Assembly: GCA_965223875.1 (NCBI GenBank)
Contig: OZ245024.1
Span: 2,483,211-2,547,210 of the forward strand
Reading direction: 5' to 3'
Source: Candidatus Multivoradales bacterium
GTDB taxonomy: Bacteria; Acidobacteriota; Thermoanaerobaculia; Multivoradales; JAHEKO01
DNA length: 64,000 nt
Shown: positions 9,801 through 50,923 of the stretch, in pieces
Layout of the letters: the number at the start of each line of letters is the position of its first letter
How positions within the stretch are numbered: position 1 is the first letter of the stretch
Made by a program: the position numbers and the translations under genes
The notes under the pieces: model-generated
What the model was told of the DNA's origin: nothing
The model's input: the letters and a program-made list of their open reading frames with translations, nothing else
Databases searched by the model: none

Positions 9801-9900
9801 GATGACGGGGCATCCGGTGACGGGTATTCGGTGACGGGGTATTCGGTGACGGGACATTCGGTGACGGGACATTCGGTGACGGGGCATTCGGTGACGGGGC
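9801..9900. repeat. 15-bp tandem direct repeat array (about 7 copies of ggtgacggg[g][ty]attc)
   Basis: Read directly: gatgacggggcatcc, then ggtgacgggtattc, ggtgacggggtattc, ggtgacgggacattc x2, ggtgacggggcattc, ggtgacggggcc... It lies in the 157-bp gap between the GT-C-like stop and the GT4 start. Confidence 0.8.
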
Positions 9901-9948
9901 CGCGGCGAGGACCCGTGGTGACGACCCACGCGGAGTGAGGACTCCAGA

Positions 9949-11544: not shown

Positions 11545-11568
11545 TAGAACACGGGAGCGGAGTGACGT

Positions 11569-18324: not shown

Positions 18325-18385
18325 GGCCGCCAATCGTATTACCAATGCGGCGCGCCGAGTGTGAGCGAAGCGCCGACGCCGATTC

Positions 18386-18646
18386 TCAGGCCCGGCGCAG
18401 GAAGAACACCAGCTCGTCGCCGTGACGGTACTGGGCGACGATGGCGTGCCCCGAGGTGGCACTGAAAGCGGCCATGTCGATCTCCGCCGCGGGGTCGGTG
18501 GCGACGACCCGCACCACCTCACCCGGGGCCATGCCGGCGAGCGCCTCGCGGGTCCGCAGCACCGGCAGCGGACAGAAGAGCCCGCGACAGTCGACCTCCA
18601 CGGTCGGCGCCGTCGCCAGCTCGCCCTCGAAGTCGACCCGCGTCAT
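18386..18646 (-). CDS. tusA: TusA/SirA-like sulfur-carrier protein
   Basis: MTRVDFEG...DCRGLFCPLPVLRTREAL has the CPxP active-site motif of TusA, about 85 aa. An alternative start at 18703 would add an acidic MLRSDGDGDDGDGDEGGRG N-terminus. Confidence 0.65.
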   Translation of the reverse strand: MTRVDFEGELATAPTVEVDCRGLFCPLPVLRTREALAGMAPGEVVRVVATDPAAEIDMAAFSATSGHAIVAQYRHGDELVFFLRRA

Positions 18647-31515: not shown

Positions 31516-34107
31516 ATGGGAGTCACCTCCGCTCGACCAGGCCGCCTGTTCACGGACCCTCGCCACGGGAAGCGTTCGCTGCCTGGCCCCGCACCCGCAA
31601 GAGTAGAGACCGACGGTAAGCACTTCACGCGAGCCGGCAGACCCCGCCTCATCAAGGGCGTCACATACGGCAGCTTCAAACGTCGCCTCGACGGGGCGCT
31701 CTATCCGCCGACCGAGGTCGTCGAGCGCGATCTGCGCGCCATGGCCGAAGCTGGTGTCAACACCGTCAGGCTCTACACCACACCTCCCGGGGATCTGCTG
31801 GACGCCGCGGACGCCCTCGGCCTCGGCCTGATCGTCGGCATCGACTACCACGACTGGCGCATGGAGCCGGCGACGAACCGGTCCGCCCGCCGTCGTATCG
31901 CACGGGCCGCGAGACGGGAGCTCGATCGAGCTCTCGAGACCTGCGTCGGGCACGCCAGCGTGCTTGCGATCGCCGTCGGCAACGAGGTTCCCGTGGACCT
32001 CGTGCGACTGCACGGCACGCGGCACGTCGAAGACACGCTGAACGAGCTCATCGAGCGCGTCCACACCTTCTGTCCGGACCTCCTGGCGACCTACGTCAAC
32101 TTCCCGACGACCGAGTTTCTGGAGATCGAATCGCAGGACTTCGTCAGCTTCAACGTCTTTCTGGAGGATCCGGAAGCACTGCGCCGGTACCTGAGACACC
32201 TCCAGATAGTCGCCGGCCCGAAGCCGCTGGTCCTCACCGAGCTCGGTCTGGCCGGGGACATCCACGGAGAGGCGACTCAGGCGCAGTCCGTCGCGTCCCA
32301 GCTGACGATCGCCACCGAGACCGGCTGTGCCGGTGCCTGCGTCTTTTCCTGGACCGACGAGTGGGCCGTCGACGACGAGCCCGTCGATGGATGGGGGTTT
32401 GGGCTGACGACGTCGGAGCGCGCGGCCAAACCGGCCCTCGGGGCGTTCTCGAACTGGACCTCTCGCCCGCTGGGCGACCTGAGGCCGCTATGGCCGCGGA
32501 TCTCGGTCGTCGTCTGCGCTCACAACGAGGAGGCGACCATCGAGGAGTGCCTGACCTCACTGGCCGAGACCGACTACCCCGACCTCGAGGTCATCGTCTG
32601 CGTCGACGGCTCCACCGACCGCACCTTCGAGATCGCTTCCCGCTTCCCCTTCCAGGTCTACGACCTGCCCCACGGCGGGCTCAGCCGAGCACGCAATCGG
32701 GGGCTGGCCGCCGCCTCGGGTGAGATCACCGCCTACCTCGACGCCGACGCGGCCTGTCACCCGTACTGGCCGTACTACCTGGCCCTCTCCCTGGAAGACC
32801 CCGAGATCGTGGCCACCGGAGGCCCCAACCTCCCCTTCCCCTCTGCCGGACTCGTCGAAGAGGCCGTGGCCCTGTCGCCGGGAGATCCGGTCGAGGTGCT
32901 GATCGGGGACGATCGCGCCGAGCACGTTCCCGGCTGCAACATGGCGTTCCGAACCGAGGAGCTCGAGGCCGCCGGCGGCTTCAACGTCGCGTGCACCGTC
33001 GCCGGCGACGACGTCGACATCTGCTGGCGCCTACTCGATCGGCAGCGGCAGATCGGCTTTGCGCCGGCTGCCCAGGTACGCCACCACCGCCGGGATCGGA
33101 TCGGACGCTACCTCAGGCAACAGCTCGGCTACGGCAGGGCCGAGAAGATGCTCTCGGGTGCCCATCCCCACAGGTACAACGGGCTCGGCCAGGCGATGTG
33201 GACCGGCTTCGTCTACACCAAGGCGCGTCTCCTGCCGAGTCTCCTCGCGCCGGTGGTCTACCACGGCTACCAGGGGATGGCACCGTTCCAGTCGATCCAG
33301 GGACGGCCCGCTCAAGCCGCCATCGGATGGGTCGGCGCCCGGCTGCCCCTGTTGCTTCCGCTGGCCATCGGTGGCCTCGTGCTCGCACCGATGGACCGGG
33401 CCTGGCTGGCGCTTCCGGTCGTGAGCCTGCTGGTCCTCGCGCTCTACGCGCTCTCGGTTGGCCTCGGACTACGCTCACGCGGTGGAGACGCGCCCTCGCG
33501 ACGCGTTCGAGGGCTTGCCGGTCTGCTCCACGTGGCCCAGCCCTTCGCGAGACTCTGGGGTCGCCTTCGCGGCAAGCCCCTGGAGCCGGTGGATCGGCCC
33601 GTGAGCTGGCAGGGCGATCGATCGCGATGGCTCCAGGTGCTGAAACGGCGGCTCGAGATCGCCGGGGTACGTACGACAGTCGGAGGACCCACCGATGACT
33701 GGGACCTCGAGGCCCGGCACGGGATCTTCCTGACGGCTCGGATCAGCACGGCAGTGGTCTGGAATTGGGAGCCGCGATGGCGGGTGCGGTGGCGTCCTCG
33801 CGGTGGAGCGTTGGCATGGCTCGCGGCAGGAGTGAGCGCCCTGTACCTGGGTGCGACGGCGGCGGGAGCCGTCCTCCTCGGTGGCGGTGCTCTCGCCCTG
33901 CTCGAGCTGCTGTCGCTCCGGCGGGCGATCATCGTCGCCCTCCGCGCATCGACACGCGGAGCCGGAGAGGGCGAAGAGCCCGTGGTCGAAACGACTCCAT
34001 CACGGCCGACCCTGGTCGGAGAGAGCCCGGAGCCCCTGCTCTTCGAACGCTCCGCCTTCTCCACTCGAGACGTGATTCCGGCCGTACAGAAGGCTCACAG
34101 GCGATGA
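31516..34107 (+). CDS. Fusion protein: clan-A-like glycoside hydrolase TIM-barrel + GT2 glycosyltransferase + C-terminal multi-TM region
   Basis: The N-terminal about 300 aa carry NTVRLY, GNEVP (acid/base-like) and TELGLAG (nucleophile-like) motifs. The middle domain carries ISVVVCAHNEE...VCVDGSTD...LDADA...GCNMAFRTEELEAAGGF...DDVDICWRL, typical of GT2. At least 4 TM helices lie in the last about 300 aa. The start is uncertain. Confidence 0.7.
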   Translation: MGVTSARPGRLFTDPRHGKRSLPGPAPARVETDGKHFTRAGRPRLIKGVTYGSFKRRLDGALYPPTEVVERDLRAMAEAGVNTVRLYTTPPGDLLDAADALGLGLIVGIDYHDWRMEPATNRSARRRIARAARRELDRALETCVGHASVLAIAVGNEVPVDLVRLHGTRHVEDTLNELIERVHTFCPDLLATYVNFPTTEFLEIESQDFVSFNVFLEDPEALRRYLRHLQIVAGPKPLVLTELGLAGDIHGEATQAQSVASQLTIATETGCAGACVFSWTDEWAVDDEPVDGWGFGLTTSERAAKPALGAFSNWTSRPLGDLRPLWPRISVVVCAHNEEATIEECLTSLAETDYPDLEVIVCVDGSTDRTFEIASRFPFQVYDLPHGGLSRARNRGLAAASGEITAYLDADAACHPYWPYYLALSLEDPEIVATGGPNLPFPSAGLVEEAVALSPGDPVEVLIGDDRAEHVPGCNMAFRTEELEAAGGFNVACTVAGDDVDICWRLLDRQRQIGFAPAAQVRHHRRDRIGRYLRQQLGYGRAEKMLSGAHPHRYNGLGQAMWTGFVYTKARLLPSLLAPVVYHGYQGMAPFQSIQGRPAQAAIGWVGARLPLLLPLAIGGLVLAPMDRAWLALPVVSLLVLALYALSVGLGLRSRGGDAPSRRVRGLAGLLHVAQPFARLWGRLRGKPLEPVDRPVSWQGDRSRWLQVLKRRLEIAGVRTTVGGPTDDWDLEARHGIFLTARISTAVVWNWEPRWRVRWRPRGGALAWLAAGVSALYLGATAAGAVLLGGGALALLELLSLRRAIIVALRASTRGAGEGEEPVVETTPSRPTLVGESPEPLLFERSAFSTRDVIPAVQKAHRR

Positions 34108-35321
34108 AGACGGTAGCGGCCAACGGCCTCAGCTACCCGCCGGCGGATCGCGGCAGGGTCGTGGTCTGGGGACTGATGGCCTCCCTGCCCTTCGGCGGCA
34201 TGATCTGGCAGGCGCTGCACTACCTCGTCGGTCTGCGGCGTCTCGGCTTCGACGTCTGGTATGTCGAGGATTCCGATCGTGTCGTCTACGACCCGGTGCG
34301 CTTCTGGCCGACCCTCGACTACTCGGCCAACGTCGAGCGGCTCGACGAGCACATGCGAGACGCCGGCCTTGGCGACCGGTGGGTCTTCCGACCCCCCGAG
34401 GTCCACGAGTTCTGTCTGGGTGCGGCCGACGACCCCGCCGCTCTGCAGCGCATCTACGAAAGCTGTGATGCCGCCATCAACCTGTGCGGCGCGCAGGAGA
34501 TGCGTCCTGAGCACCGAGCGATCCCCCGCCTCGTATACCTCCAGACCGACCCGACCGCCGACCAGGTCCGGGTGGCGTGTGGCCGCCGACCCAAGATCGA
34601 GGAGCTCGAGGCATACGACTATCTGTTCACCTACGGCGAGAACATCGGCGACGACGACTGCGGGATTCCGGTCAAGCGCTTCGACTGGCTGACCACGCGC
34701 CCGCCGGTGCTCATGGACTGGTGGGCGAACGGCAACGGAGCCGAGCCCGAGCGCAAGCTGACGACCATCTCCAACTGGAAGCGCTTCCCGAAGAAGAACG
34801 TCACCTGGAAGGGCGAGACCTGGAGCTGGAACAAGCAGGACGAGATCCGCCGCTTCATTACGCTGCCGGAGAGATCGACGCTACCCCTCGAGCTGGCGCT
34901 GGGCGGGGTCGTCAGCGACCGTGAGAAGGACCTGCTGCGCGGCCACGGCTGGCAGGTACGGTCCGCCGCCGAGATCTCGGACGCCGAGGCCTACCGCGCC
35001 TACGTCCGGCACTCGATGGGAGAGCTGACGATCGCCAAGGAGCAGTACGTGATCCCCCGCTCCGGCTGGTTCAGCGACCGGAGCGTCTGCTACCTCGCGT
35101 CGGGTGGTCCCGTGGTCACGCAGAACACCGCCTTCGGCAAGCGCATCCCGACCGGCGAGGGACTGTTCGCGTTCGATGTCGCCGACCAGGCCATCGACGC
35201 CATCGACGAGATCTCCGGCGACTACCGGCGCCACTCGAAGGCGGCCGCGGAGATCGCCGCGGCGTACTTCTCGTGCGACGTGGTCCTTCCGGCGATGCTC
35301 GAGAAGGCAGGGTTGGGCTGA
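34104..35321 (+). CDS. Putative GT-B-fold glycosyltransferase-like protein (unclassified)
   Basis: ATGA overlap with the upstream gene. The N-terminus SLPFGGMIWQALHYLVGLRRLGFDVWYV and the C-terminal SDRSVCYLASGGPVVTQNT resemble GT-B donor-binding elements. Weak assignment. Confidence 0.35.
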   Translation: MKTVAANGLSYPPADRGRVVVWGLMASLPFGGMIWQALHYLVGLRRLGFDVWYVEDSDRVVYDPVRFWPTLDYSANVERLDEHMRDAGLGDRWVFRPPEVHEFCLGAADDPAALQRIYESCDAAINLCGAQEMRPEHRAIPRLVYLQTDPTADQVRVACGRRPKIEELEAYDYLFTYGENIGDDDCGIPVKRFDWLTTRPPVLMDWWANGNGAEPERKLTTISNWKRFPKKNVTWKGETWSWNKQDEIRRFITLPERSTLPLELALGGVVSDREKDLLRGHGWQVRSAAEISDAEAYRAYVRHSMGELTIAKEQYVIPRSGWFSDRSVCYLASGGPVVTQNTAFGKRIPTGEGLFAFDVADQAIDAIDEISGDYRRHSKAAAEIAAAYFSCDVVLPAMLEKAGLG

Positions 35322-36397
35322 TGAGCCGAACGCTTCGCATCGCCCAGATCGCGCCGCTGTGGACCAGTGTGCCGCCAGCCACCTACGGAGGCGCCGAGCT
35401 CATGGTCCACTGGCTGACCGAGGAGCTGGTGAGCCGGGGGCATCAGGTCGACCTGTTCGCTTCCGGCGACTCGGTGACCCGGGCCACGCTGCACTCCGTC
35501 TGCGAACGTCACCTCATCGAGGCGATGGAGCGCGGCGAGGCGCATGTCTACGAGCCCTGGGCGGCGGCCGCGATGGCCGAGGCTCTCGCCAGGGACTCCG
35601 AATACGACGTCATCCACTGCCATCTCGGCGCCTCGATGGCGCCCCTGGGACGGCTGGCTCGCACACCGGTCGTCCATACGATTCACACCGATCTGAAAGC
35701 CGTCGACGAGCTCCGGATCCTCGAGCTCTACCCCGATGTCCCGATCGCCGCCATCAGTGCCTCGCAAGTGAGCGGGCTCCCGGAAGACCGCCGCGGTCCT
35801 TTGCGGATCATCCATCACGGCTGCGATTTCGACACCTACGAGCCGCGGTACGAGGCGGGCGAGCACCTGGCCTTCCTCGGCCGGATGGGACCCCACAAGA
35901 ATCCCGTCGGCGCGATCGACATCGCGCGTGGCGCGGGAATGCCCCTGGTCATGGCGGGCTCGCCGCAGGACGAGGCGGAAGCGGAGTACTTCACCAGGGA
36001 GGTAGAGCCGAGGATCGACGGCGAAACCGTCCTCTGGCTCGGTGACGTCGACCATCCGGCCAAGGTCGATCTGCTCCGCAAGGCCGCGGCACTGCTCTTT
36101 CCGATCGAGTGGGACGAGCCCTTCGGTCTGGTCATGATCGAGGCGATGGCCTGCGGGACGCCGGTGCTGGCCCATCGACGCGGCTCGGTACCCGAGGTCA
36201 TCGAGCACGGCGTTACCGGCTTCCACGCCGAGACTCCGGGCCTGCTCCGCACGCTGGTCGGGAGAACCCGGTCGCTCGATCGTCGCAGGGTGCACGAAGC
36301 GGCCAGGCGCCGTTTCGGCCATCGACGCATGGTCGACGACTACGTCGATCTCTACCGACAACTGGCCACGGGGGTGACGCAGTGGAAGGCCGGGTGA
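35321..36397 (+). CDS. GT4 glycosyltransferase
   Basis: Classic PLWTSVPPATYGGAELMVHWL N-terminus and EPFGLVMIEAMACGTPVLAHRRGSVPEVIEHGVTGF C-terminal motif. Confidence 0.85.
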   Translation: MSRTLRIAQIAPLWTSVPPATYGGAELMVHWLTEELVSRGHQVDLFASGDSVTRATLHSVCERHLIEAMERGEAHVYEPWAAAAMAEALARDSEYDVIHCHLGASMAPLGRLARTPVVHTIHTDLKAVDELRILELYPDVPIAAISASQVSGLPEDRRGPLRIIHHGCDFDTYEPRYEAGEHLAFLGRMGPHKNPVGAIDIARGAGMPLVMAGSPQDEAEAEYFTREVEPRIDGETVLWLGDVDHPAKVDLLRKAAALLFPIEWDEPFGLVMIEAMACGTPVLAHRRGSVPEVIEHGVTGFHAETPGLLRTLVGRTRSLDRRRVHEAARRRFGHRRMVDDYVDLYRQLATGVTQWKAG

Positions 36398-37467
36398 TCG
36401 GCGCCGAGCATCCCGCCGCCGTCGCGTGGCGCAAGCTGGCGGGCTCGGAGGCACGGCCGGACGAGATCGTCGCCTTCGAGCGGCGCTGGAAGAAGCGCCG
36501 GGCACGCCCCGTCTACCGGCTGCAACGGCGGACCGAGCCGGCCTTCGACGTCGTCGCCAAACCCTGCAGGAGCGACGAAGCCCTGCGCACCGCGGTCATC
36601 TACCGGCACCTACTCCCATACGTCCCGATCCGCTGCCCTCACCTGCTCGGTATCGTTCCGGGGGACGCAGACGACCGGTCATGGCTCTTCTTCGAGTGGG
36701 TCGAGGCGATGGAGTACGAACCGGCCGATCGCGCCCATCGTCGACTCGCCGGCCGCTGGCTGGCGACCCTGCACACGACCGCGGCCGAAGTGTGTGGAGG
36801 CACGCGAATCGCCCGACTCGACTATCTGTACGACCTCGACTCACCGGGGCTCCGGGAGCACCTGTCGACGATCGCCGCCCTTCTCGACGACGCTCTCACC
36901 GGCGGCGCCTTCTCCGACGACGATGCGCGGCTGCTGCGCTCCCTCGACGAAGGGCGCGCGGCGCTCGAGCGCCACTGGAGCGCCCTCGAGGACTTCACCC
37001 GCTCGGTCCCGCGAACCCTGGTCCACGGCGACTTCTGCGTCTCCAACATGCTGGTGAGCCACGAGGACCGGCTCGTGGTCTTCGACTGGCAGCGCTCGGG
37101 CTGGGCCAGCCCCGCGTTCGACCTGACCCGATTCCTCGGATCGTGGGCCGACCCCGACCTCGAGGCCTATCTCGACGTCACCGGGCGACACTGGCCCGGC
37201 TTCGATGCCGGGACGGTCCGCCGATTGGCCTACGTCGGCGAGATCCTGCGCTGGGTGGAGGCTGTCCGATGGGACGTGGCGCAGCTCGGCGGCGAATGGA
37301 CCGAGGGTCCACTGAGCCGCCTGCGGGTCTACCAGCGCTGGATGCGCGACATCCTGGAGGCGGCTCCCTGGACCGACGACGCTCCACTCGGCGGATCCGG
37401 CTGGCGCTCGGCCGTCCCCTACGAGCGGCCGGCCCGATTGGCGCCGGGAGCTCCCGTCCACGCATGA
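36382..37467 (+). CDS. APH/choline-kinase-like phosphotransferase (protein-kinase-like fold)
   Basis: GTG start overlapping the GT4 end. Brenner motif LVHGDFCVSNMLV followed by VVFDWQ (DFG-equivalent). Confidence 0.65.
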   Translation: MEGRVIGAEHPAAVAWRKLAGSEARPDEIVAFERRWKKRRARPVYRLQRRTEPAFDVVAKPCRSDEALRTAVIYRHLLPYVPIRCPHLLGIVPGDADDRSWLFFEWVEAMEYEPADRAHRRLAGRWLATLHTTAAEVCGGTRIARLDYLYDLDSPGLREHLSTIAALLDDALTGGAFSDDDARLLRSLDEGRAALERHWSALEDFTRSVPRTLVHGDFCVSNMLVSHEDRLVVFDWQRSGWASPAFDLTRFLGSWADPDLEAYLDVTGRHWPGFDAGTVRRLAYVGEILRWVEAVRWDVAQLGGEWTEGPLSRLRVYQRWMRDILEAAPWTDDAPLGGSGWRSAVPYERPARLAPGAPVHA

Positions 37468-37488
37468 GAGGCCAGGAGTGAGCGATTC

Positions 37489-38646
37489 GTGAGGTCTCCC
37501 GTGCCCCCAGGCATCTCGGCGAGCATCGTCGTCAACAACTACAACTACGGCGCCTTCCTCGCCGAAGCGATCGACAGCGCTCTCGCTCAGACATGGGAGC
37601 ACACCGAGGTGGTCGTGGTGGACGACGGATCGACGGACGACTCCGCCGACATCATCAACGCCTACGGCGATCGAATCGTCCCCGTGCTGAAGGCCAACGG
37701 TGGACAGGGATCGGCTTTCAACGCGGGCTACGCGGCGTCGGCGGGCGATGTCGTCATCTTTCTGGACGCCGACGACAGGCTCCGCCCGACGGCCGTCGAG
37801 GCGGCGGTTCCCCACTTCGCCGACCCGTCGACGGCCACGGTGCAGTGGAGGCTCACGGTGATCAACGCCGAGGGCCGGACGACCCCACAGCTCATCCCAC
37901 GCCGGCGGCCGCCGGTCGGCGACCTCACGCGGGCCGCGGTCGAGCGGGGCCCGGATCAGTTCCGCTGGGCGCCGACCTCGGGTACCGCCTGGTCGCGACG
38001 CTATCTCGAGCGGGTCCTGCCGGCACCCGAGCTCTACCGCCACGGCATCGACTGCTACCTGTTCCAGTTGGTGCCCTACTTCGGCAAGGCGGCGGCTCTG
38101 GAATCCTCCGAGAGCTTCTACCGGCTCCACGGCGCCAACGACAGCCGCACGATCGGCTTCGACAGAAAGCTCCGCCGGCAGGTCAGGTTCTACGACGACT
38201 ACTCGGCACGGGCCCTGGCGGAGTGCACTCGTCGAGGATGGGTCGCCGACCCGGCGCAGTGGAGAGCGAACTCCTGGTGGTGCCGTCTCGACCGGGCCGC
38301 CAGCGAGCTCGACGCGACCCTCGAGCCCGGCGCACCCTTCATCCTCGTCGACGAGAACAGTTGGGGGGTCGACGAGACCTTCAGCGGAAGGCCGGTGATG
38401 CGGTTCGTCGATCGCGACGGCAGGTACTGGGGCCCACCGGCCGACGACGCCAGTGCCGTCGCCGAGATCGAGCGTCTCCGCCAGGCGGGCGCGTCGGCGG
38501 TGGCTTTCGCCTGGAAATCGTTCTGGATGCTCGATCACTACCAGGGTCTCGCCGCCCGCCTGCATGACAACCATACCGTCCGGCTCGACAACGACCACCT
38601 GAAGATCTTCTCGCTCGACCGACGGATCGGAGGCGCCAGCCGATGA
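37489..38646 (+). CDS. GT2 glycosyltransferase with C-terminal about 105-aa domain shared with the downstream sulfotransferase
   Basis: ISASIVVNNYNYGAFLAEAIDSALAQT...VVVVDDGSTDDS...FLDADD (DxD). The C-terminal PFILVDENSWG...YWGPPADD...IERLRQAGASAVAFAWKSFWMLDHY...LKIFSL (about aa 270-377) aligns to aa about 198-306 of the ORF at 39648. Confidence 0.8.
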   Translation: MRSPVPPGISASIVVNNYNYGAFLAEAIDSALAQTWEHTEVVVVDDGSTDDSADIINAYGDRIVPVLKANGGQGSAFNAGYAASAGDVVIFLDADDRLRPTAVEAAVPHFADPSTATVQWRLTVINAEGRTTPQLIPRRRPPVGDLTRAAVERGPDQFRWAPTSGTAWSRRYLERVLPAPELYRHGIDCYLFQLVPYFGKAAALESSESFYRLHGANDSRTIGFDRKLRRQVRFYDDYSARALAECTRRGWVADPAQWRANSWWCRLDRAASELDATLEPGAPFILVDENSWGVDETFSGRPVMRFVDRDGRYWGPPADDASAVAEIERLRQAGASAVAFAWKSFWMLDHYQGLAARLHDNHTVRLDNDHLKIFSLDRRIGGASR

Positions 38647-39632
38647 GACCAGCCCACAAACGCGCCGGTCGCGAGCTCGAGCCCGCCGATCGCGCGGTCC
38701 TTCTGATGGGGCTGGCTCGAGCCCTGAGCAAGGCCGGCCTGGGGCCGGAAGCTCTCGACCTGGCGCCCAACTGCGCGCACTCGCGCTCGGGAAGCTATCC
38801 GAGCTGCACGGCGATCTGCCGGCTGACCCACGGAGGGACCCGGCGCCTGTTCTGCAAGTGCTCGAAGGACTTCGACGCGCCCAGCCATCGACACCGTTCC
38901 GGGGTCGCCTACGAGGCGAGGGTCTACGAACAGCTGGTGAGCCGCTTCGACGGCGCCTCGCCGGAGTACGTGGGTGCGTACGAGGACCACTCCCGCGGCC
39001 TGGCGTTCCTCTTCCTGGAGGAGCTCGAGGGCGTCCTGCGGGTCTCCAAGACAGCGGCCGGAAACATGTCCCGCGCAGCGGCCTGGATCGGCAGGTTCCA
39101 TCGCCGGCACGACCTGGCGCAGGGCGCCGTGCCGGTCTTCCTGACCGTCTACGACCGCGACTACTACACGCAGTGGCCGCGTCGCGCCCTGCGACTGACG
39201 CGCAAGCTCCACGGGCGCTACCCCTGGCTGGGAACCGTCTGCGACGCGTTCGAGAGCGAGATGGTGCCCCTGCTGCTCGCCGCCGCCCAGACGGTCATCC
39301 ATGGGGAGTACTACCCGAAGAACATCCTCGCCAGACGCAGCACGGTCTTCCCCGTCGACTGGGAGTCGACCGCGGTGGGACCGGGCGAGCTCGATCTGGT
39401 CTCGCTGACCGAAGGGTGGCCGGACGAGGACAAGAGAGCCTGCGCGCGCTCCTACCGTGATGCCCGCTGGCCCGACGGCGCACCGGCGAGCCATGCGCCG
39501 GCCTGTCGGGCGGCAGGGATGTACTGGCTGCTCCGCTGGCTCGGCAACGGCAGCTACTTCGCGACCGGAAAGCACGGCGTCCGGCGGCTCAACGAGCTGG
39601 GCGCCCTGGCCGGTCGTCTGGGCTGGATCTGA
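38643..39632 (+). CDS. APH-like phosphotransferase paralog with HGE in place of HGD
   Basis: ATGA overlap with the upstream gene. Motifs VIHGEYYPKNIL and VFPVDWE parallel the first kinase. Confidence 0.55.
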   Translation: MRPAHKRAGRELEPADRAVLLMGLARALSKAGLGPEALDLAPNCAHSRSGSYPSCTAICRLTHGGTRRLFCKCSKDFDAPSHRHRSGVAYEARVYEQLVSRFDGASPEYVGAYEDHSRGLAFLFLEELEGVLRVSKTAAGNMSRAAAWIGRFHRRHDLAQGAVPVFLTVYDRDYYTQWPRRALRLTRKLHGRYPWLGTVCDAFESEMVPLLLAAAQTVIHGEYYPKNILARRSTVFPVDWESTAVGPGELDLVSLTEGWPDEDKRACARSYRDARWPDGAPASHAPACRAAGMYWLLRWLGNGSYFATGKHGVRRLNELGALAGRLGWI

Positions 39633-39647
39633 CCCGGGAGTCCTGAC

Positions 39648-40577
39648 ATGAGACCACTCGAAGATCATCAGAAGGTTCTCGGTATCGGTTTGAGCAAGAC
39701 CGGGACGACGAGTCTGACCACGGCGCTCCAGACGCTCGGGATCGCGACGATCCACAACCCCCACGACGGGCGAACCCAGCGTGAGCTCCAGAGCGGCCAC
39801 CCGCGGCTGAGCGTGCTCGAGGAGTACCAGGCCGTGACCGACATCCCCGTCGCCCCCTACTACCCCCAGCTCGACACGATCTACCCGGGAAGCAAGTTCA
39901 TCCTGACCGTGCGCGACGTCGACTCCTGGATCGTGTCGGCCCGCAACCACTGGCGCCTCATCCCCTCCTGGGAGGCGGACCCCTTCTACGGCTTTCTCCA
40001 TGCCGCCGTGTACGGCTGCCTCGACTTCGACGAGGAGCGTTTCCGATGGGCCTACGAAAGCCATCGTCGCGCGGTGACGCGCTACTTCGCCGGTCGCGAA
40101 GAGGACCTGCTGGTGATGGACATCGTCGGCGGTGACGGCTGGGAGGTGCTCTGCCCGTTCCTCGGTCGCGAGGTCCCGGATACAGCTTTCCCGCACAAGA
40201 ACACCCGCGCCGAGACGGCCGAGTGGGGAGGCCGCCTGCGGCGCACGGTCGAGGAGCTCGAGAGCGCCATCCCGAGAGAGACGCCGTTCATCCTGGTCGA
40301 TGAGCAGGAGTTCGGACGCCTTCTGGTGGACGGCAGGAGGCCGATCCCGTTTCTCGAGAACGGGGGCGAGTACTGGGGGCGCCCGGCGGACGGAGCGAAC
40401 GGCATCGCCGAGCTCGAGCGACTGCGCGACTGCGGCGCCGGGTTCATCGCCTTCGCCTGGCCCGCCTTCTGGTGGCTCGAGTACTACGGCGATCTGCAGG
40501 AGCACCTCGACACGAGGTATCCCTGCGTGATTCGCAACGAACGGTTGGTGGTCTTCGACCTGGTCGCCGAGAACTGA
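39648..40577 (+). CDS. Sulfotransferase-family protein (P-loop/5'-PSB-like KTGTTS motif) + shared C-terminal domain
   Basis: N-terminus VLGIGLSKTGTTSLTTAL (PAPS 5'-phosphosulfate-binding-like loop) within an about 190-aa domain. C-terminal PFILVDEQEFG...YWGRPADG...LERLRDCGAGFIAFAWPAFWWLEYY...LVVFDL is homologous to the GT2 C-terminus. Confidence 0.6.
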   Translation: MRPLEDHQKVLGIGLSKTGTTSLTTALQTLGIATIHNPHDGRTQRELQSGHPRLSVLEEYQAVTDIPVAPYYPQLDTIYPGSKFILTVRDVDSWIVSARNHWRLIPSWEADPFYGFLHAAVYGCLDFDEERFRWAYESHRRAVTRYFAGREEDLLVMDIVGGDGWEVLCPFLGREVPDTAFPHKNTRAETAEWGGRLRRTVEELESAIPRETPFILVDEQEFGRLLVDGRRPIPFLENGGEYWGRPADGANGIAELERLRDCGAGFIAFAWPAFWWLEYYGDLQEHLDTRYPCVIRNERLVVFDLVAEN

Positions 40578-40579
40578 CC

Positions 40580-42406
40580 GTGGACGCCGCCCGACAGCGG
40601 ACGCTCCCCCGTCTGCTCCCCTACGCGGCGCGCCAGAGAGGCGCGCTCATCGTCGTCGTCCTGCTCACCGCGGCGAGCGCCGCCGCGGTCGCGCTGCGAC
40701 CGTGGCCGATGAAGCTCCTGGTCGACTGGGGACTCGGCGACGTGGAGATCCCTTCACGGCTCGAGCGTCTGTTGACCGACTGGGGGCTCTCCTCGAGCCC
40801 CTTCGCGCTCGTCGTCATGGCCGGAGTCGCCAGCCTCGGAGTCCACCTTGTCCACAGCCTCCTGGGTGCCGGCCTCACCATGTCCTGGGCGCGGGCCGGC
40901 CAGCGCATGGTCAACGACCTCTCGGTCGACCTGTTCGCCAGCCTCCAGCGTCGCTCCCTCGGATTCCACTCCCGCCAACCCGTCGGCGATTCCCTGGCGC
41001 GGATCACCGACGATGCCTGGTGTGTCTACACGGTCACGAACGGGCTCCTCATCGCTCCCCTTCAGAAGACCCTGACCGTCGTCGCGATGGGAGTCGCCGC
41101 CTACCTTCTCGACCCGACCCTGGCTCTCCTGGCGCTGCTCATGGCACCCCTGCTGGCTCTCTCGGCCCTCTGGTTCGGCGGCCGACTGAAGCGTCGCGCC
41201 CGCCTCGACCGCGAAGCGCGCTCGCGCCTGTTGAGCTTCGTCCACCAGACGCTCGAGGCCCTGCCACTGGTGAAGGCCTACGCGAGCGAGGACAGGAATC
41301 GCCGCCACTTCGACTCCCTGGCCGACCACTCCGTCCAGGCCACTCAGCTGGGCAGCCTGGTCAACAGCGGCTTCGGCATGGTCAACAGCCTGGTGACGAC
41401 GCTGGGGACGGCGGTGGTCCTGATCGTCGGCGGACACCGAGTGCTCTCCGGCGGAATCACTCTCGGAACACTGCTCGTCTTCATCACATACGTCCGCACC
41501 ATCCAGGCCGCATCGAAGGACCTCTTCTCGACGTTCGCAAAGCTCAAGGCGGCGGAGGCCGCCGCCGAGCGGGTCTTCGACCTCCTGGACGATGGTGACG
41601 CGCTTCACAAAGTCGAGTTGAGCGCCCTACCGAAACCACGTAGGCGCAGTGACAGCCAGGGAGTCTGCGTCCGCCTGGAGGACGTGAGCTTCGGCTACGA
41701 ACCGAGCCATCCGGTCCTTCGAGGCGTCACCCTCGAGGCCCATGCGGGCCAGACCGTGGCCCTGGTCGGGCCGAGTGGGGCCGGCAAGAGCAGCCTGCTC
41801 TGCCTCTTGATGCGCTTCTACGATCCCTGGCAGGGACGAATGCTGATCGACGGGGTCGATGTGAGCGCGGTGCCGCTCCCGGACCTTCGCGAGGGAATCT
41901 CCGTCGCCCTTCAGAGCGACTACCTCCTACCCGTCTCGGTACGCGACAACATCGCCTACGGGCGCCCCGAGGCGGACTTCGAAGAGATCCGTCGGGCGGC
42001 GCGGCTCGCCTGCGCCGACGGCTTCATCTCCAGACTGCCCGACGGATACGACACCCGACTCGCCGAATGGGGCGCGACGCTGTCCGGCGGCGAGCGCCAG
42101 CGGATCGCCATCGCCAGAGCGCTCCTGCGGCAGGCCCCGCTGCTGATCCTCGACGAGCCGACCTCGGCACTCGACGCAGCAACCGAGGAGCGCGTGCTGA
42201 CCAATCTCTCGGGTCTCGAGGGATGCACCACGCTCGTCGTGGCCCACCGCCTGTCGACGATCCGCCGGGCCGATCTCATCGCGTTCCTCGACCAGGGGCG
42301 GGTGATCGAGGTCGGCACGCACGAGGAGCTCACACGGCTCGGCGGGCAATATCACCGCATGTGCACGGCGCAGCGCTTCGCCGCGGCCAGGGAGGACGTC
42401 GCATGA
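40580..42406 (+). CDS. ABC exporter, fused TMD-NBD half-transporter (MsbA-like type I exporter)
   Basis: GTG start 3 bp after the sulfotransferase stop. Six TM helices, then an NBD with GPSGAGKSS, LSGGERQR and ILDEPTSALD. Confidence 0.85.
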   Translation: MDAARQRTLPRLLPYAARQRGALIVVVLLTAASAAAVALRPWPMKLLVDWGLGDVEIPSRLERLLTDWGLSSSPFALVVMAGVASLGVHLVHSLLGAGLTMSWARAGQRMVNDLSVDLFASLQRRSLGFHSRQPVGDSLARITDDAWCVYTVTNGLLIAPLQKTLTVVAMGVAAYLLDPTLALLALLMAPLLALSALWFGGRLKRRARLDREARSRLLSFVHQTLEALPLVKAYASEDRNRRHFDSLADHSVQATQLGSLVNSGFGMVNSLVTTLGTAVVLIVGGHRVLSGGITLGTLLVFITYVRTIQAASKDLFSTFAKLKAAEAAAERVFDLLDDGDALHKVELSALPKPRRRSDSQGVCVRLEDVSFGYEPSHPVLRGVTLEAHAGQTVALVGPSGAGKSSLLCLLMRFYDPWQGRMLIDGVDVSAVPLPDLREGISVALQSDYLLPVSVRDNIAYGRPEADFEEIRRAARLACADGFISRLPDGYDTRLAEWGATLSGGERQRIAIARALLRQAPLLILDEPTSALDAATEERVLTNLSGLEGCTTLVVAHRLSTIRRADLIAFLDQGRVIEVGTHEELTRLGGQYHRMCTAQRFAAAREDVA

Positions 42407-44211
42407 GGACCTGGTGGGTTCGGCTCCTCGGGTACGCCGCCAGGTACTGGGTCGCGATCCTCGGCATTCTGGCACTGCTCCTCACGGGCGCCGGGCTCGG
42501 CCTGCTGACTCCGTGGCCCCTCAAACTGATCGTCGACCATGTCCTGACCGGCGTCGACCTACCCGCCGGGCTTCGCTGGATCGAAGCTCTGCCAGGGGCC
42601 GCCACCCGGCAGGGACAGCTCGTCTGGCTCGCCGCCGCGACGGTCCTGCTGTTCATCGCCGGCCGCGTCGTCGTGATCCTCGAGCGCTACCTGCGCACGG
42701 GCGTGGGCAGCCGGATGGTCTACGCCCTGGCCGGCGATCTGTTCGAGGCCCTGCAGCGCCAATCGCTCCGTTTCCACCACCAGCGCAGCAGAGGTGACCT
42801 GGTTCGCCGCGTCACGGCCGACGCCGCCTGTGCCCGGGAGCTCGTCCTCGACGTCATGGTGCCGCTCGTCGTCTCCGTGGCGACCCTCGTAACGATGTTC
42901 CTCGTCATGTGGCGATTGAGCCGCCCCCTCGCTCTGGTGGCCCTGATGGTGGCGATCCCTCTCGGTCTCGTGGTGCGCCTGTTCGCCTCGCCGATGGCGG
43001 AGCGCAAGCTGCGCAAGAAGGACCTTCAGGGACGGGCGATGGCCGTTGCCGAGCAGACTCTCACCGCCATCCCCCTGGTGCAGGCGTTCGGTCGCGAGGG
43101 TCGGGAGGACGAGAGGTTCCGCCACATCAATGAGCGCATGATCGAGGCCAGCCTTCGCGCCACAGGCATCAAGCTGCAGTTCAAGGTCGTCTGCGGACTC
43201 GTTACCGCCGTGGCCGCGGCGGCGGTCATGGTTCTCGGAGGGACACAGGTCCTGGAGGGCTCCCTGTCCGTCGGAGCGTTACTCGTCCTGCTGCACTACT
43301 TCGCTGCTCTGTACGGCCCGATGGAGAGCCTGGCCTATCTTTCCGACAGCGTCGCCTCGGCATCGGCGGGCGCCACCCGCGTCTTCTCCGTGCTCGACAG
43401 CGAAGAGGAGACGTTGCCCGAGCGGCGGGGCGCGCAAGCCCTCGATCCGGCACGACGCGCGCCCGGGCTCGCCGTCGACTTCGAAGCCGTCACCTTCGGG
43501 TACGACGCGGCAAAGCCGGTACTGCACAGCGTCACGACTCGCATTCAGCCGGGAGAGACGGTCGCCGTCATCGGACCAACCGGCGCAGGGAAGAGCACCC
43601 TCCTCTCGCTCGTTCCCCGCTTCTACGACCCCGACCAGGGACGGATCCGCGTCGGGGGCGAAGATCTTCGGGAGGTGTCTCTGCGCAGCCTCCGATCACG
43701 GGTGACGCTGGTTCTCCAGCAACCGTTCCTCCTGCCGCTGAGCATGGCGGAGAACATCGCCTATGGGCGACCGGGTGCGACGCGACGGGAGATCCGGCGA
43801 GCGGCCCGGCAGGCACGGGCCGATGAGTTCATCGAGCGTCTTCCCGAGGGATACGAGACCATGGTCGGCGAACGCGGCGAGACTCTCTCGGGCGGCGAGC
43901 GGCAGCGCCTGGCGATCGCGCGGGCCATACTGCGGGACACTCCGATCCTTCTTCTGGACGAGCCCACGGCCTCGCTCGACGCCTTCACCGAGAGCGCGTT
44001 GCTCGAGATCCTCGAAGAGCTGATGGCCGATCGCACCTGCATCGTCGTCGCCCATCGCCTCTCGACCGTGCGCTATGCCGACCGCATCCTCGTCCTCGAC
44101 GAAGGTCGTATCCTCGAGGAGGGCACCCCGGCCGAGCTCGAGCGCTCCGGCGGGCTGTACGACCGGGCGCACCGCCTACAGACAACCCGAGGCGGGACAG
44201 GCGGGCGCTGA
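42403..44211 (+). CDS. ABC exporter, fused TMD-NBD half-transporter (second subunit of a putative heterodimer)
   Basis: ATGA overlap with the previous exporter gene. Six TM helices, then an NBD with GPTGAGKST, LSGGERQR and LLDEPTASLD. Confidence 0.85.
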   Translation: MRTWWVRLLGYAARYWVAILGILALLLTGAGLGLLTPWPLKLIVDHVLTGVDLPAGLRWIEALPGAATRQGQLVWLAAATVLLFIAGRVVVILERYLRTGVGSRMVYALAGDLFEALQRQSLRFHHQRSRGDLVRRVTADAACARELVLDVMVPLVVSVATLVTMFLVMWRLSRPLALVALMVAIPLGLVVRLFASPMAERKLRKKDLQGRAMAVAEQTLTAIPLVQAFGREGREDERFRHINERMIEASLRATGIKLQFKVVCGLVTAVAAAAVMVLGGTQVLEGSLSVGALLVLLHYFAALYGPMESLAYLSDSVASASAGATRVFSVLDSEEETLPERRGAQALDPARRAPGLAVDFEAVTFGYDAAKPVLHSVTTRIQPGETVAVIGPTGAGKSTLLSLVPRFYDPDQGRIRVGGEDLREVSLRSLRSRVTLVLQQPFLLPLSMAENIAYGRPGATRREIRRAARQARADEFIERLPEGYETMVGERGETLSGGERQRLAIARAILRDTPILLLDEPTASLDAFTESALLEILEELMADRTCIVVAHRLSTVRYADRILVLDEGRILEEGTPAELERSGGLYDRAHRLQTTRGGTGGR

Positions 44212-44398: not shown

Positions 44399-46111
44399 TC
44401 AGCGGCCGCGGGAGAGGAATCGACCGGGCCTGGCGCCGGTCATCGCCCCATCGAGCAGAACCGGCTCGCCGTTGACCAGCAGGTGGACGATTCCCGCAGG
44501 GTAGTGATGCGGGTCGGTGTACCGGGAGCGGTCCTCGACCGTCTCCGGATCGAAGACCACGATGTCGGCCAGCTTTCCGGGCAACAGAACACCGCGATCC
44601 GCCTGCCCCATCCACTCGCTGGGCAGGCCGGTCATGCGGTGGACCGCGTCCTCCATCGTCAGCACACCCTCCTCACGGACGTAGTGACCGAGGACGCGCG
44701 GGAACGATCCGTAGCTGCGCGGGTGCGGATGTCCCTCGCCGGGCACCACCAGATCGCCGTCGGTCTCGAACATGGCACCGGGGTGTCGCATGATCCGGCG
44801 CACGTCGTCCTCCGACATGCCGTAGAAGATGCCGATGAAGCCCCCCTGGATCTGCAGCTCGATGAGCGCCTCGACGGTGCGCTCCGCGGTCGGCGTCCCC
44901 TCTGCGCTCTCCGGCGACTCCCGGGCAGCCAGATAGCCGGCCAGGGTCCGGCCCTCCCACTCCGGTGCCGCCGGTAGCTCCCGGAACCGAACGCTCTCCG
45001 GCACGCCGCCGGTCTGCTGCGGGAAGATCTCGAGCATCTCGCGGACGATCCGCTCTCGGGTCGCGGGGTCGGCGGCACGCCTCGCGAAGGCCTCCGTCCC
45101 TTCGGCCAGGGCCCAGGCGGGAAAGAGGAGGTCCGAGTAGGTGCTGAAGGCGGTGTACGGGTAGACGTCGAAGGCGACCTCGAGGCCCGAAGCCCTCGCC
45201 GCGTCGATCGCCTCGAGCAGGCTCTCCGAGCGGCCCCACTGCGCCGCGCCGGTCACCTTCAGATGGTTGATCTGGACGGGCAGGCCGGCACGCCGACCGA
45301 TCTGGAGCGCTTCGTCGACCGCGTCCACAACGCGCGGGCCCTCGTCACGCAGATGGGTGACGTAGATCCCACCGAAGTGGGCCGCCACTTCGGCCAGGGC
45401 GACGATCTCGTCGACCTCGGCGTAGATCGCGGGAACGTACTCGAGGCCGGTCGAGAGCCCCAACGCGCCCCGCCGCATCGCTTGCGCGACGAGCTCGCGC
45501 ATGCGGTCCAGCTCCTCGTCCGTCGGAGAGCGGTCCTCCAGACCCATCACTCGCTTGCGGATCCAGGTATGGCCGGCGAACAGACCGACATTGGGCGCCA
45601 TCTCGACACGATCCCTGTACTCGTCGATCGGATACGGCTGATCCTGGCTGTGAAGCGGCGCCAGGATCGTCGTGATCCCCTGGCGAACGAAGTTCTCTGC
45701 CAGGGGCTTCGATTCGAGATCGACAATGTGGGCATGGCTGTCCCAGAATCCCGGCGCCACCGCCAGGCCGGTGACGTCGATGACACGGACCGCACTGTCG
45801 CGATCGAGCTCGGGAGCGACGGCGACGATGCGATCGCCGCGCACGCCCACGTCCGCCGTCGTTCCCGGCGCTCCGGTGCCGTCGATCACCGTTCCGCCGA
45901 CGAGCAGGAGGTCGAAGCCCCCGTTGAGGCTCCCGTTGAGGCTCCCGTTGAAGCCCTCGCTGAGACCTCCTTTTTCGGGGCCACCTTGACAGCCGACCAG
46001 GCCTGCAAAGACCAGCAGCGCCGCCGCCGGACGGCCGAGTCGTCTCACCGTGTCGACGCCTCCGGGCGCCCAAGCCACCAGGGGGACTCGAAAGGCACGG
46101 CCTCCGGCCAC
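44399..46111 (-). CDS. N-acyl-D-amino-acid deacylase (D-aminoacylase)-like amidohydrolase, lipoprotein
   Basis: Lipobox LVFAGLVGCQGG. The amidohydrolase HxH-region GFWDSHAHI and the overall layout (TIM barrel plus small beta domains) match D-aminoacylases. The N-terminal NGSL x3 linker is encoded by a 12-bp tandem repeat at about 45925-45963. The start may lie downstream, because the ORF overlaps the next gene by 67 bp. Confidence 0.75.
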   Translation of the reverse strand: MAGGRAFRVPLVAWAPGGVDTVRRLGRPAAALLVFAGLVGCQGGPEKGGLSEGFNGSLNGSLNGGFDLLLVGGTVIDGTGAPGTTADVGVRGDRIVAVAPELDRDSAVRVIDVTGLAVAPGFWDSHAHIVDLESKPLAENFVRQGITTILAPLHSQDQPYPIDEYRDRVEMAPNVGLFAGHTWIRKRVMGLEDRSPTDEELDRMRELVAQAMRRGALGLSTGLEYVPAIYAEVDEIVALAEVAAHFGGIYVTHLRDEGPRVVDAVDEALQIGRRAGLPVQINHLKVTGAAQWGRSESLLEAIDAARASGLEVAFDVYPYTAFSTYSDLLFPAWALAEGTEAFARRAADPATRERIVREMLEIFPQQTGGVPESVRFRELPAAPEWEGRTLAGYLAARESPESAEGTPTAERTVEALIELQIQGGFIGIFYGMSEDDVRRIMRHPGAMFETDGDLVVPGEGHPHPRSYGSFPRVLGHYVREEGVLTMEDAVHRMTGLPSEWMGQADRGVLLPGKLADIVVFDPETVEDRSRYTDPHHYPAGIVHLLVNGEPVLLDGAMTGARPGRFLSRGR

Positions 46112-49990: not shown

Positions 49991-50913
49991 GACGCGCGGC
50001 GCTCCTACTGTCGGTTCTGGCCGCGGCACTCGCCGGCTGTCACCCGTCGAGCACCCAGCAGGCGGATCTGGCCTTCGAGCCGGAGATTCCGAACCCCGCG
50101 TTCGCCGAGGGCACGGGACCGACCGTCCTGGTCGACGAAGCGCACCAGAACTTCCACACCGTCGACGGTCGCTACGCGCCCTTCGCCAAGCTGCTGCGAC
50201 GCGACGGCTACGTCGTCGAGGGACTGGCCGAGTCGGCCTCACTGGAAGCCCTGGCAGGCGCCGACGTCTACGTCATCGCCAACGCCATCGCCGCCTCCGA
50301 CGAGGAGGGCTGGACGCTGCCGATCGAACAGGCCTTCACCGAGGCCGAGGTCGAGGCGATCGCCACCTGGGTGGAGGGCGGCGGCTCCCTCCTCCTCATC
50401 GCCGACCACATGCCGATGCCCGGAGCCGTGGAGAGCCTGGCGGCCGAGTTCGGCGTGCTGTTCGGCAATGGCTTCCTGTACGACGCCGACGGCGAGTCGA
50501 AGCTCGAGTTCTGTCGCGAATCGGGCCTGGCGAGCCACCCGATCACCGAGGGTCGGAGTGCCGACGAGCGGGTCGAGTGCATCCGGACCTTCACCGGCCA
50601 GGCGTTCCGCGCCGAGGTCGAGCTCGAGCCGCTCATCACCCTGCCCTCGGGCAGCCGGCTCAAGCTGCCGATCGAGGCCTGGGAGTTCGAGGAGACGACG
50701 CCGTCGATCCTCGCCGGAGGGATGCTCCAGGGCGCGGTACTGCGCCACGGCCAGGGCCGGGTGGCGATGTTCGGTGAAGCGGCGATGTTCTCGGCCCAGG
50801 AGCGGATCTCGGACGAGGGCCGTGAGCTGATGGGCATGAACCGGCCCGACGCGGCCGAGAATCCGCAGTTCCTGCTCAACGTGATGCACTGGCTGTCGGG
50901 ACTGATCGGCTAG
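49987..50913 (+). CDS. Lipoprotein, DUF4350/ThuA-like (class I glutamine-amidotransferase-like fold) candidate
   Basis: GTGA overlap with the upstream gene and a lipobox LAGCHP. The C-terminus NPQFLLNVMHWLSG is a DUF4350-like ending. Weak assignment. Confidence 0.4.
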   Translation: MRRAALLLSVLAAALAGCHPSSTQQADLAFEPEIPNPAFAEGTGPTVLVDEAHQNFHTVDGRYAPFAKLLRRDGYVVEGLAESASLEALAGADVYVIANAIAASDEEGWTLPIEQAFTEAEVEAIATWVEGGGSLLLIADHMPMPGAVESLAAEFGVLFGNGFLYDADGESKLEFCRESGLASHPITEGRSADERVECIRTFTGQAFRAEVELEPLITLPSGSRLKLPIEAWEFEETTPSILAGGMLQGAVLRHGQGRVAMFGEAAMFSAQERISDEGRELMGMNRPDAAENPQFLLNVMHWLSGLIG

Positions 50914-50923
50914 AGTCTCGACA

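Follow-up and report, generated by a model that had tools for sequence, protein, structure and literature searches.

The 64,000-nt stretch of Candidatus Multivoradales bacterium DNA analysed here (contig OZ245024.1, positions 2,483,211 to 2,547,210; hereafter the window) carries on its plus strand, at 31516–34107, a gene encoding a fusion enzyme of 863 amino acids (aa) in which a clan GH-A glycoside hydrolase (GH) barrel is followed by a family 2 glycosyltransferase (GT2) domain and two transmembrane (TM) hairpins. The open reading frame (ORF) is uninterrupted (863 codons plus stop), its G+C fraction at third codon positions (GC3 = 0.81) is typical for coding sequence in DNA with approximately 68% G+C, and an identical 863-aa protein (P0001) is held in public collections. 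An earlier note on this DNA had described a single polypeptide, with an undetected frameshift or stop between two genes as the alternative. Conservation was assessed across 84 family members from more than 15 phyla, and gene neighbourhoods across the 84 fetched loci. The same fused layout (median 865 aa) was present in 82 of these loci and predominated among the 150 best-scoring N-domain representatives, which, together with the continuous ORF, bears out the single polypeptide and led to rejection of a frameshift or two-gene artefact. These data confirm that 31516–34107 encodes one intact three-part protein consisting of a barrel, a GT2 domain and four C-terminal TM helices.

An AlphaFold2 (AF2) model of the full-length enzyme had a mean predicted local distance difference test score (pLDDT) of 83.6 and a predicted template modelling score (pTM) of 0.78. 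The first 28 residues (31516–31599) are unconserved and missing from many homologues, with pLDDT below 50 for aa 1–24; the true start of the gene could lie farther downstream, and the public annotation shares the present start. The motifs quoted in the earlier note were located at aa 82 (NTVRLY), 155 (GNEV) and 241 (TELG) in the barrel and at aa 364 (DGS), 409 (DADA) and 487 (GGF) in the GT2 part, with a single correction, the stretch at aa 498 reading DDVDICWRL and not EDVDICWRL.

The N-terminal part (aa 29–322; 31600–32481) is a clan GH-A (beta/alpha)8 barrel, predicted to be cytoplasmic, whose closest families are GH157, GH2 and GH72. A profile built from 24 diverse N-domains matched PDB entries 9fz9 and 9g4n (E=3.6e-25), which represent LaGH157, a GH157 enzyme of Labilibaculum antarcticum solved with laminaribiose and laminaritriose. 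The next matches were GH2 beta-glucuronidases and beta-galactosidases, followed by GH158 and by GH72 beta-1,3-glucanosyltransferases. Identity between the barrel and LaGH157 is approximately 21%, and GH2 is equally close in structure. Both features of clan GH-A retaining hydrolases were found, namely the (beta/alpha)8 fold and a pair of glutamates, one in an N-E pair after strand beta4 and one at the end of strand beta7. The predicted acid/base pair N156-E157 (31981–31986) lies at the end of beta4 (DSSP strand 149–156) and aligns with the NE of LaGH157. The predicted nucleophile E242 of the TELG motif (32239–32241) lies in the beta7 strand (DSSP strand 238–243 of the AF2 model) and aligns with LaGH157 E224, the residue replaced by Ala in 9g4n, a mutant made by the depositors. 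Eight barrel residues (R85, N156, E157, Y193, E200, E242, W283 and W293) are invariant in all 84 family members. The earlier note had proposed a clan-A barrel and had allowed that the paired catalytic glutamates might be lacking; by sequence and secondary structure both are in place, and the barrel is predicted to be a genuine clan GH-A domain with an intact catalytic apparatus.

Assignment of the barrel to a family was less direct. When the 24 N-domains were scanned singly against Pfam, 21 matched GH2_C and 20 matched GH72. In the fusion enzyme itself GH2_C scored 16.9 bits with the whole protein and 20.8 bits with the isolated domain against a gathering cutoff of 21, there was no match to PF02837 or PF00703, and the barrel begins at aa ~29; with a score below cutoff and the accessory domains absent, membership of GH2 was rejected. 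GH17, the family of the NdvB barrel, was considered because JGI labels some homologues ‘GH17’, and was rejected since PF00332 was absent from the Pfam matches at E<=1 and the topology differs. GH157 is an endo-beta-1,3-glucanase family (PMC10637969; PMC10229575), and the GH157, GH72 and GH158 affinities alone give a weak hint of a beta-1,3-glucan-like substrate or backbone.

The barrel is followed by a GT2 domain of the GT-A fold, predicted to be inverting, with an interface helix (aa 326–560; 32491–33195), in agreement with the earlier note. PF00535 (E=7e-28) spans aa 330–436 and PF13641 (E=3e-19) extends to aa 536. The DxD metal/nucleotide-sugar motif D409-A-D411 (32740–32748) and the predicted catalytic-base region G497-DDVD-501 (33004–33018) are both present, and D364, D409, D411, D498, D499 and D501 are invariant in the 84 members. 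The surrounding AGDDVDxCW stretch aligns with the GGEDNE catalytic-base region of the chondroitin polymerase K4CP, which was the best PDB match of a profile of the GT2 and TM parts (E=4e-34); GalT1, PcManGT and entries 5mlz, 5ekp and 9hwj were also matched in the GT2 region. The best curated model was that of the mycofactocin oligoglucosyltransferase MftF (TIGR03965; aa 322–567), at 135.6 bits against a cutoff of 280, with far weaker matches to AglG (57 bits), NodC (30.6 bits against a cutoff of 550) and DPhHxTase (25 bits). Similarity to BcsA was weak (E=3e-5) and confined to the first ~106 profile positions, in the N-terminal half. The helix after the GT-A core (aa 529–549) carries QQLGYG (aa 535–540; 33118–33135) in place of QxxRW and is without the R-W pair; in this QQxGYG motif Q535, Q536 and Y539 are invariant and G540 is present in 83 of 84 members. 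As the barrel and GT2 sites are both invariant across phyla, both are under purifying selection and look functional.

The family-averaged hydropathy profile contains exactly two hairpin-sized hydrophobic blocks, at 600–656 and 759–805. These correspond in the fusion enzyme to hairpin 1 (aa ~598–651; 33307–33468), with AF2-model helices at 598–623 and 628–651, and hairpin 2 (aa ~763–812; 33802–33951), with helices at 763–778 and 780–812 and followed by a disordered cytoplasmic tail. Between them lies a cytoplasmic insert of ~110 residues (aa 652–762; 33469–33801) made up of a basic amphipathic helix and a small alpha/beta unit; it contains 23 K+R against 10 D+E, has R679 and R683 invariant in all 84 members, and yielded no relative in Pfam or PDB searches. 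No membrane-like segment was found in aa 1–560 (family-averaged hydropathy maximum 1.08), and the fusion enzyme, like 83 of 84 relatives, has neither a signal peptide nor a TM segment before the barrel or between barrel and GT2. The one remaining relative has a hydrophobic N-terminus, probably from an over-extended ORF start. The C-terminal multi-TM region of the earlier note is thus a membrane anchor of four helices in two hairpins around a cytoplasmic insert, as the topology check it had called for indicated, and does not look like a BcsA-type channel.

Hydropathy, the positive-inside rule, the AF2 model and the polarity of natural fusions together predict that the barrel and the GT2 site are both cytoplasmic. 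A GT2 dependent on nucleotide sugars must face the cytoplasm and no TM segment separates the two domains, so the barrel would be cytoplasmic too; placed there, it would be unable to shorten a chain after export in the manner of BcsZ or PgaB. None of the predicted external turns exceeds 8 aa. The polarity argument comes from four family members in which the fusion enzyme is joined at its C-terminus to an ATP-binding cassette (ABC) exporter (P0114, P0127, P0128 and P0151; 1336–1421 aa), and these junctions to N-in exporters fit a cytoplasmic C-terminus. Two other variants (P0153 and P0188) carry C-terminal NHL-repeat propellers (~1260 aa) and one (P0150) an additional N-terminal GT2 domain.

A database search with the full-length enzyme, in which 8,000 candidates were scored, returned at least 4,785 matches at E<1e-10; the best 120 were nearly all 750–880 aa long with 84–98% query coverage. 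The N-domain alone matched 1,821 representative clusters at 50% identity, mostly fused proteins of 800–900 aa. Counting one genome per species, the family is present in at least 593 species, distributed among Actinomycetota, Alpha-, Beta-, Gamma- and Deltaproteobacteria, Bacteroidota, Planctomycetota, Acidobacteriota, Gemmatimonadota, Verrucomicrobiota, Nitrospirota, Chloroflexota and Myxococcota, with one Thermoplasmata metagenome-assembled genome (MAG). In this archaeal MAG (L045) a homologue with 42% identity occupies 21–2297 of an 8.6-kb contig, which reflects horizontal transfer unless the contig was binned wrongly. Among named relatives those from Actinomycetota are closest (54–58% identity), and the closest relative of all, locus L002, encodes an enzyme 70% identical to the one described here in the same gene order. 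OmpW and outer membrane protein beta-barrel genes lie upstream on the L002 contig, which hints at a diderm host.

Seventy loci include 3 kb or more of sequence downstream of the fusion gene, and in 62 of them an MsbA-type ABC exporter (ABC_membrane plus ABC_tran) lies there on the same strand. A second recurrent partner, found downstream in 46 of the 84 loci, is represented in the window by a conserved soluble protein of 405 aa (34104–35321, plus strand) whose start overlaps the fusion-gene stop in an ATGA. This partner has no Pfam, NCBIfam or PDB match of its own; its relatives give weak matches to PF13524 (GT-B-like) and occur fused to GT2, GT4 or YdjC, which suggests a divergent GT-B fold. 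Its family (>4,300 matches, mostly named ‘hypothetical protein’) is more strongly conserved between phyla than the fusion enzyme, with 52–59% identity into Cyanobacteria and Nitrospinota. Unbiased clustering of neighbourhood ORFs returned the same three top families (fusion enzyme, ABC exporter and 405-aa partner), and the triad was recovered when a reciprocal search was begun with the Moorena partner or with that of a Nitrospinaceae genome. The widespread module has three parts, namely the fusion enzyme as its signature, either one or two exporters of the MsbA type, and a GT-B-like protein of ~400 aa. Accessory genes vary by locus and include an NAD-dependent epimerase/dehydratase (24 loci), UDP-Glc/GDP-Man dehydrogenase (13), YdjC deacetylase-like protein (11), sulfotransferase (11), APH kinases (~9–12) and hexapeptide acyltransferase (9). 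Family proteins are labelled in databases only as ‘glycosyltransferase’ or ‘hypothetical protein’, and literature searches using the PDB codes, GH157 and GH-GT2 fusions found no paper describing the fusion family or the module.

In the window the module lies within nine genes on the plus strand (31516–44211), tightly packed by ATGA/GTGA start-stop overlaps, which therefore appear to form one operon with translational coupling. The fusion gene and the 405-aa partner are followed by a GT4 glycosyltransferase (35321–36397, start refined; PF00534 and PF13439), an APH/EcKL-type small-molecule kinase (36394–37467, alternative start 36382; PF01636, E=4e-18), a second GT2 glycosyltransferase (37489–38646, start 37489 or 37501; PF00535, E=2e-29), a second APH-type kinase (38643–39632; PF01636, E=6e-7) whose start overlaps the preceding gene in an ATGA, and a sulfotransferase of the Sulfotransfer_4 type (39648–40577; PF17784, E=1e-38). 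The last two genes encode MsbA-type ABC exporter half-transporters (40580–42406, with a membrane domain and a nucleotide-binding domain matching PF00664 and PF00005, and 42403–44211), which probably form a heterodimer. When compared with the MsbA-related, HepA and ChvA/NdvA (glucan-exporter) NCBIfam models the exporters scored below every cutoff. Since the 662-aa ORF upstream of the fusion gene is conserved with the cluster in none of the 84 loci, the fusion gene is the first gene of the operon, as the earlier note had supposed; the gene beyond the operon (44399–46228) is convergent on the minus strand. Promoter and terminator scans at the operon ends returned nothing, the sigma-70 consensus being a poor model for DNA of high G+C content. 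Among the Pfam-annotated ORFs of the window and the recurrent neighbour clusters there was no Wzx, Wzy, outer membrane polysaccharide export or polysaccharide co-polymerase (OPX/PCP) protein and no initiating phosphoglycosyltransferase.

A number of further observations concern individual operon genes and the rest of the window. The second GT2 (38272–38625) and the sulfotransferase (40221–40562) have a homologous C-terminal region of ~115 aa, 45–46% identical by way of the L002 orthologues, in which no Pfam domain was reported and which may be a docking or substrate-binding module for tailoring enzymes. The GT4 gene of L002 is called as two ORFs (13807–14400 and 14441–14899; 197 and 152 aa), possibly through a frameshift, a pseudogene or an assembly error in the MAG. 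Two Sulfatase-family (PF00884) genes are present in the window, at 16900–18642 (minus strand) and 50906–52297 (plus strand), and another directly adjoins the Nitrospinaceae cluster (L086, 13083–15521); their products could be either genuine sulfatases with a sulfated glycan as substrate or transferases of the OpgB/LtaS type. Upstream of the operon, at 7512–12762 and 15408–16733, is a separate small set of glycan-related genes comprising a 759-aa ORF, a glycosyltransferase of the GT1 group and a methyltransferase; a DDE transposase comes after it. ARAGORN reported a 94-nt tRNA-Glu(ctc) at 56499–56592 (plus strand) inside a Ser/Thr protein kinase ORF (56072–57697, minus strand) where Rfam finds none, and this is probably a false positive.

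On balance, and with considerable room for doubt, it seems probable that the fusion enzyme is a cytoplasmic-facing bifunctional enzyme that makes and processes a beta-glycan, which is then decorated in the cytoplasm and exported by the ABC transporter. Its predicted parts are a retaining GH-A beta-glycosidase or transglycosylase and an inverting GT2 beta-glycosyltransferase, with the two hairpins anchoring them to the cytoplasmic side of the membrane. Working at this face, the GT2 domain would draw on nucleotide sugars to assemble a beta-linked oligo- or polysaccharide, and the barrel would act in cis on the nascent chain by cutting it to length, releasing it from a primer or transglycosylating it to produce branches or rings. 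The GT-B-like protein, the GT4 and the second GT2 may then add further sugars and the two APH-type kinases and the sulfotransferase may add phosphate and sulfate, before the finished anionic glycan is exported by the ABC heterodimer. We infer the order of these steps, the choice between hydrolysis and transglycosylation and the identity of the sugars. That the product is beta-1,3-glucan-like or cyclic is a tentative proposal and less likely than not. Doubtful, too, is the broader suggestion of a new phylum-spanning class of glycan synthase in which a cytoplasmic GH-A transglycosylase fused to a GT2 polymerase produces length-defined or cyclic beta-glucan-like oligosaccharides that are phosphorylated or sulfated in the cytoplasm and leave through an MsbA-type ABC exporter dedicated to them and in some cases joined to the enzyme. 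Such a class would have evolved independently as a counterpart to the cyclic-glucan and osmoregulated periplasmic glucan (OPG) systems, present in at least Actinomycetota, Cyanobacteria, Bacteroidota, Planctomycetota, Acidobacteriota and one archaeal MAG.

Several points weigh against a cytoplasmic beta-glycan synthase of this kind. A retaining glycosidase beside a synthase in the cytoplasm could amount to a futile or an editing activity. The topology is itself a prediction from hydropathy, the positive-inside rule and the AF2 model. The exporters fall under every curated subfamily cutoff and their substrate class is unreadable from sequence, while the accessory genes point in some lineages to uronic or amino sugars and not to a plain glucan. 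Four distant representatives (P0131, P0206, P0219 and P0239) have lost the NE motif, the nucleophile motif or both, so barrel catalysis would not be universal in the family. In members with such losses NE is replaced (e.g. SVGRGLP, SVGQPLP) and the nucleophile Glu is mostly lost as well, which suggests that in these lineages the barrel is no longer catalytic. Losses of this kind, together with the sub-cutoff GH2_C score of the present enzyme, are what would be expected if the barrel were a glycosidase-derived acceptor-binding or scaffold domain and the protein functionally a GT2 alone. The full set of R85, N156, E157, Y193, E242 and W283 is nevertheless kept in all 84 members, conservation so strict over that evolutionary distance that it is hard to explain without catalysis, and a non-catalytic barrel is considered quite improbable.

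Other explanations differ in what the GT2 domain acts upon and in how the product leaves the cell. The enzyme might glycosylate a membrane lipid or polyprenyl-phosphate-linked acceptor, with the ABC transporter acting as an MsbA- or PglK-like flippase and the barrel editing, recycling or releasing intermediates. The arrangement of GT-A core, interface helix and C-terminal hairpins does resemble that of DPMS, GtrB and ArnC (profile matches 5mlz, 5ekp and 9hwj), the exporters score similarly on the MsbA and glucan-exporter models and also match PglK, and the invariant R679 and R683, carried by the basic helix at the membrane surface, offer a possible binding site for a lipid phosphate. However, the conserved neighbourhood contains no initiating phosphoglycosyltransferase, ligase or polymerase, the best GT2 match is to MftF, which uses a soluble acceptor, with the polyprenyl-phosphate types AglG and DPhHxTase far weaker, and no obvious role is left for a conserved retaining glycosidase; a lipid-linked pathway therefore appears unlikely. 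The product might instead be an oligoglycosylated small molecule; in the way understood for MftF and mycofactocin, the GT2 would add a beta-oligosaccharide to a small aglycone, the barrel trim it, the kinases and sulfotransferase modify it and the ABC transporter export it. The GT2 score is far under the MftF cutoff, no polyketide synthase, nonribosomal peptide synthetase, ribosomally synthesised and post-translationally modified peptide or terpene genes were found in the conserved core or the window, and a core triad that stays the same across more than 15 phyla is less in keeping with a specialised metabolite than with a glycan of the envelope or an osmoprotectant one; this explanation is judged improbable.

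The earlier note had likened the protein to a self-contained synthase-dependent exopolysaccharide module that unites polymerisation and chain trimming, functions normally split as in BcsA/BcsZ and PgaC/PgaB. Such a machine would polymerise a chain, translocate it through its own TM region and trim it after export. Co-occurrence of GH, GT2 and TM parts in one chain is compatible with such a machine and NdvB provides a precedent for a GH-plus-GT2 synthase with an extracytoplasmic GH domain (PMC10237404). The present barrel lacks a signal peptide and is not separated from the GT2 by a TM segment; there are just four TM helices, all C-terminal and with short external turns, and none on the N-terminal side of the GT2; Q(Q/R)xRW is replaced by the invariant QQxGYG; and the BcsA similarity is weak, the GT-A core aligning best with soluble polymerases of the K4CP type. 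A BcsA-like synthase was rejected on motif and TM architecture. With a cytoplasmic barrel, no channel-type TM region, a GT-B-like partner and a near-obligatory ABC exporter that is sometimes fused to the enzyme itself, this model could not be upheld and is regarded as highly improbable.

If the reading as a cytoplasmic-facing beta-glycan enzyme is right, domains that cleave and make glycan are fused on one side of the membrane, an unusual arrangement, and the ‘hydrolase’ would serve biosynthesis, through control of chain length, release from a primer, branching or cyclisation, and not degradation or trimming. Fusions of GH and GT domains are already known from NdvB, Cgs and tunicate CesA; what is new here is an uncharacterised and very widespread module that is all cytoplasmic by prediction. 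Identification of its product would add a widespread pathway for an envelope or extracellular glycan, in this organism apparently both sulfated and phosphorylated. The coupling of synthesis and processing to ABC export could also be studied in this compact module, and four single-chain exporter fusions exist naturally.

Among known systems, BcsA/BcsZ and PgaC/PgaB likewise pair a GT2 polymerase with a glycan-processing hydrolase in one gene cluster. Hydrolases of the BcsZ and PgaB type are separate extracytoplasmic proteins, and synthases of the BcsA and PgaC type form their own TM channel with a QxxRW motif, whereas the fusion enzyme has neither a separate extracytoplasmic hydrolase nor a QxxRW channel; neither the ORFs of the window nor the recurrent neighbour clusters included BcsB/BcsC, PgaA/PgaB or Alg44-like partners. 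In the NodC/NodH/NodIJ and K4CP-type systems GT2 synthesis takes place at the cytoplasmic face and is followed by cytoplasmic tailoring (sulfation by NodH) and ABC export. No fused glycosidase is known from either of them, and their transporters NodIJ and KpsMT belong to the ABC-2 and not the MsbA type. K4CP provides the best PDB sequence match to the GT-A core of the fusion enzyme, whereas the GT2 domain scores far below the NodC cutoff. MftF, the best curated match of the same domain, differs in having no GH barrel, and in addition to the sub-cutoff score no mycofactocin genes lie near the fusion gene. Tunicate CesA is another natural fusion of a GT2 with a glycoside hydrolase, GH6 (PMC7464555), but it is eukaryotic, its GT2 is of the cellulose synthase type, GH6 does not belong to clan GH-A, and sequence and context are unrelated. 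LaGH157, in addition to its low identity, differs in its length (537 aa, extending well past the barrel) and in lacking the family-invariant PTTE(F/Y)L motif that contains E200 of the fusion enzyme. The characterised GH157 of Bacteroides cellulosilyticus is a degradative enzyme of the cell surface (PMC10229575).

A closer architectural parallel is NdvB, the pseudomonad ‘Orphan’ cyclic beta-1,3-glucan synthase, a single chain of ~860 aa with a GT2, TM helices and an N-terminal clan GH-A barrel akin to families active on beta-1,3-glucan, for which the same logic has been proposed, with synthesis by the GT2 and cutting or transglycosylation by the GH (PMC10237404). NdvB carries a GH17 barrel with a signal peptide, predicted to be periplasmic, and TM regions flanking a BcsA-like GT2 with Q(Q/R)xRW (PMC10237404). 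In the present enzyme a GH157/GH2-like cytoplasmic barrel abuts the GT2, the hairpins are C-terminal, the motif is QQxGYG and the partner is an ABC exporter; a periplasmic PF00332 barrel separated from the GT2 by TM segments was not found.

Steps catalysed by the cyclic glucan synthase Cgs are cytoplasmic and the product leaves through the MsbA-type ABC exporter Cgt/NdvA/ChvA. The domains differ, Cgs being built of GT84, GH94 and GH189 where the fusion enzyme has GT2 and GH-A, and Cgs is approximately three times larger; no homology to GT84, GH94 or GH189 was detected in Pfam, NCBIfam or PDB searches of the fusion enzyme. What the two have in common is the placing of GT and GH-type domains in one membrane protein, which in Cgs carries out elongation, length control and transglycosylation (PMC10834661). 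The features that mark cytoplasmic synthesis coupled to an ABC exporter, namely a coupled exporter (62 of 70 loci, and two copies in the present operon) and the location of all catalytic domains in the cytoplasm, the latter by prediction, were both found for the module, and its likeness to Cgs/Cgt is an analogy of logic and not one of membership.

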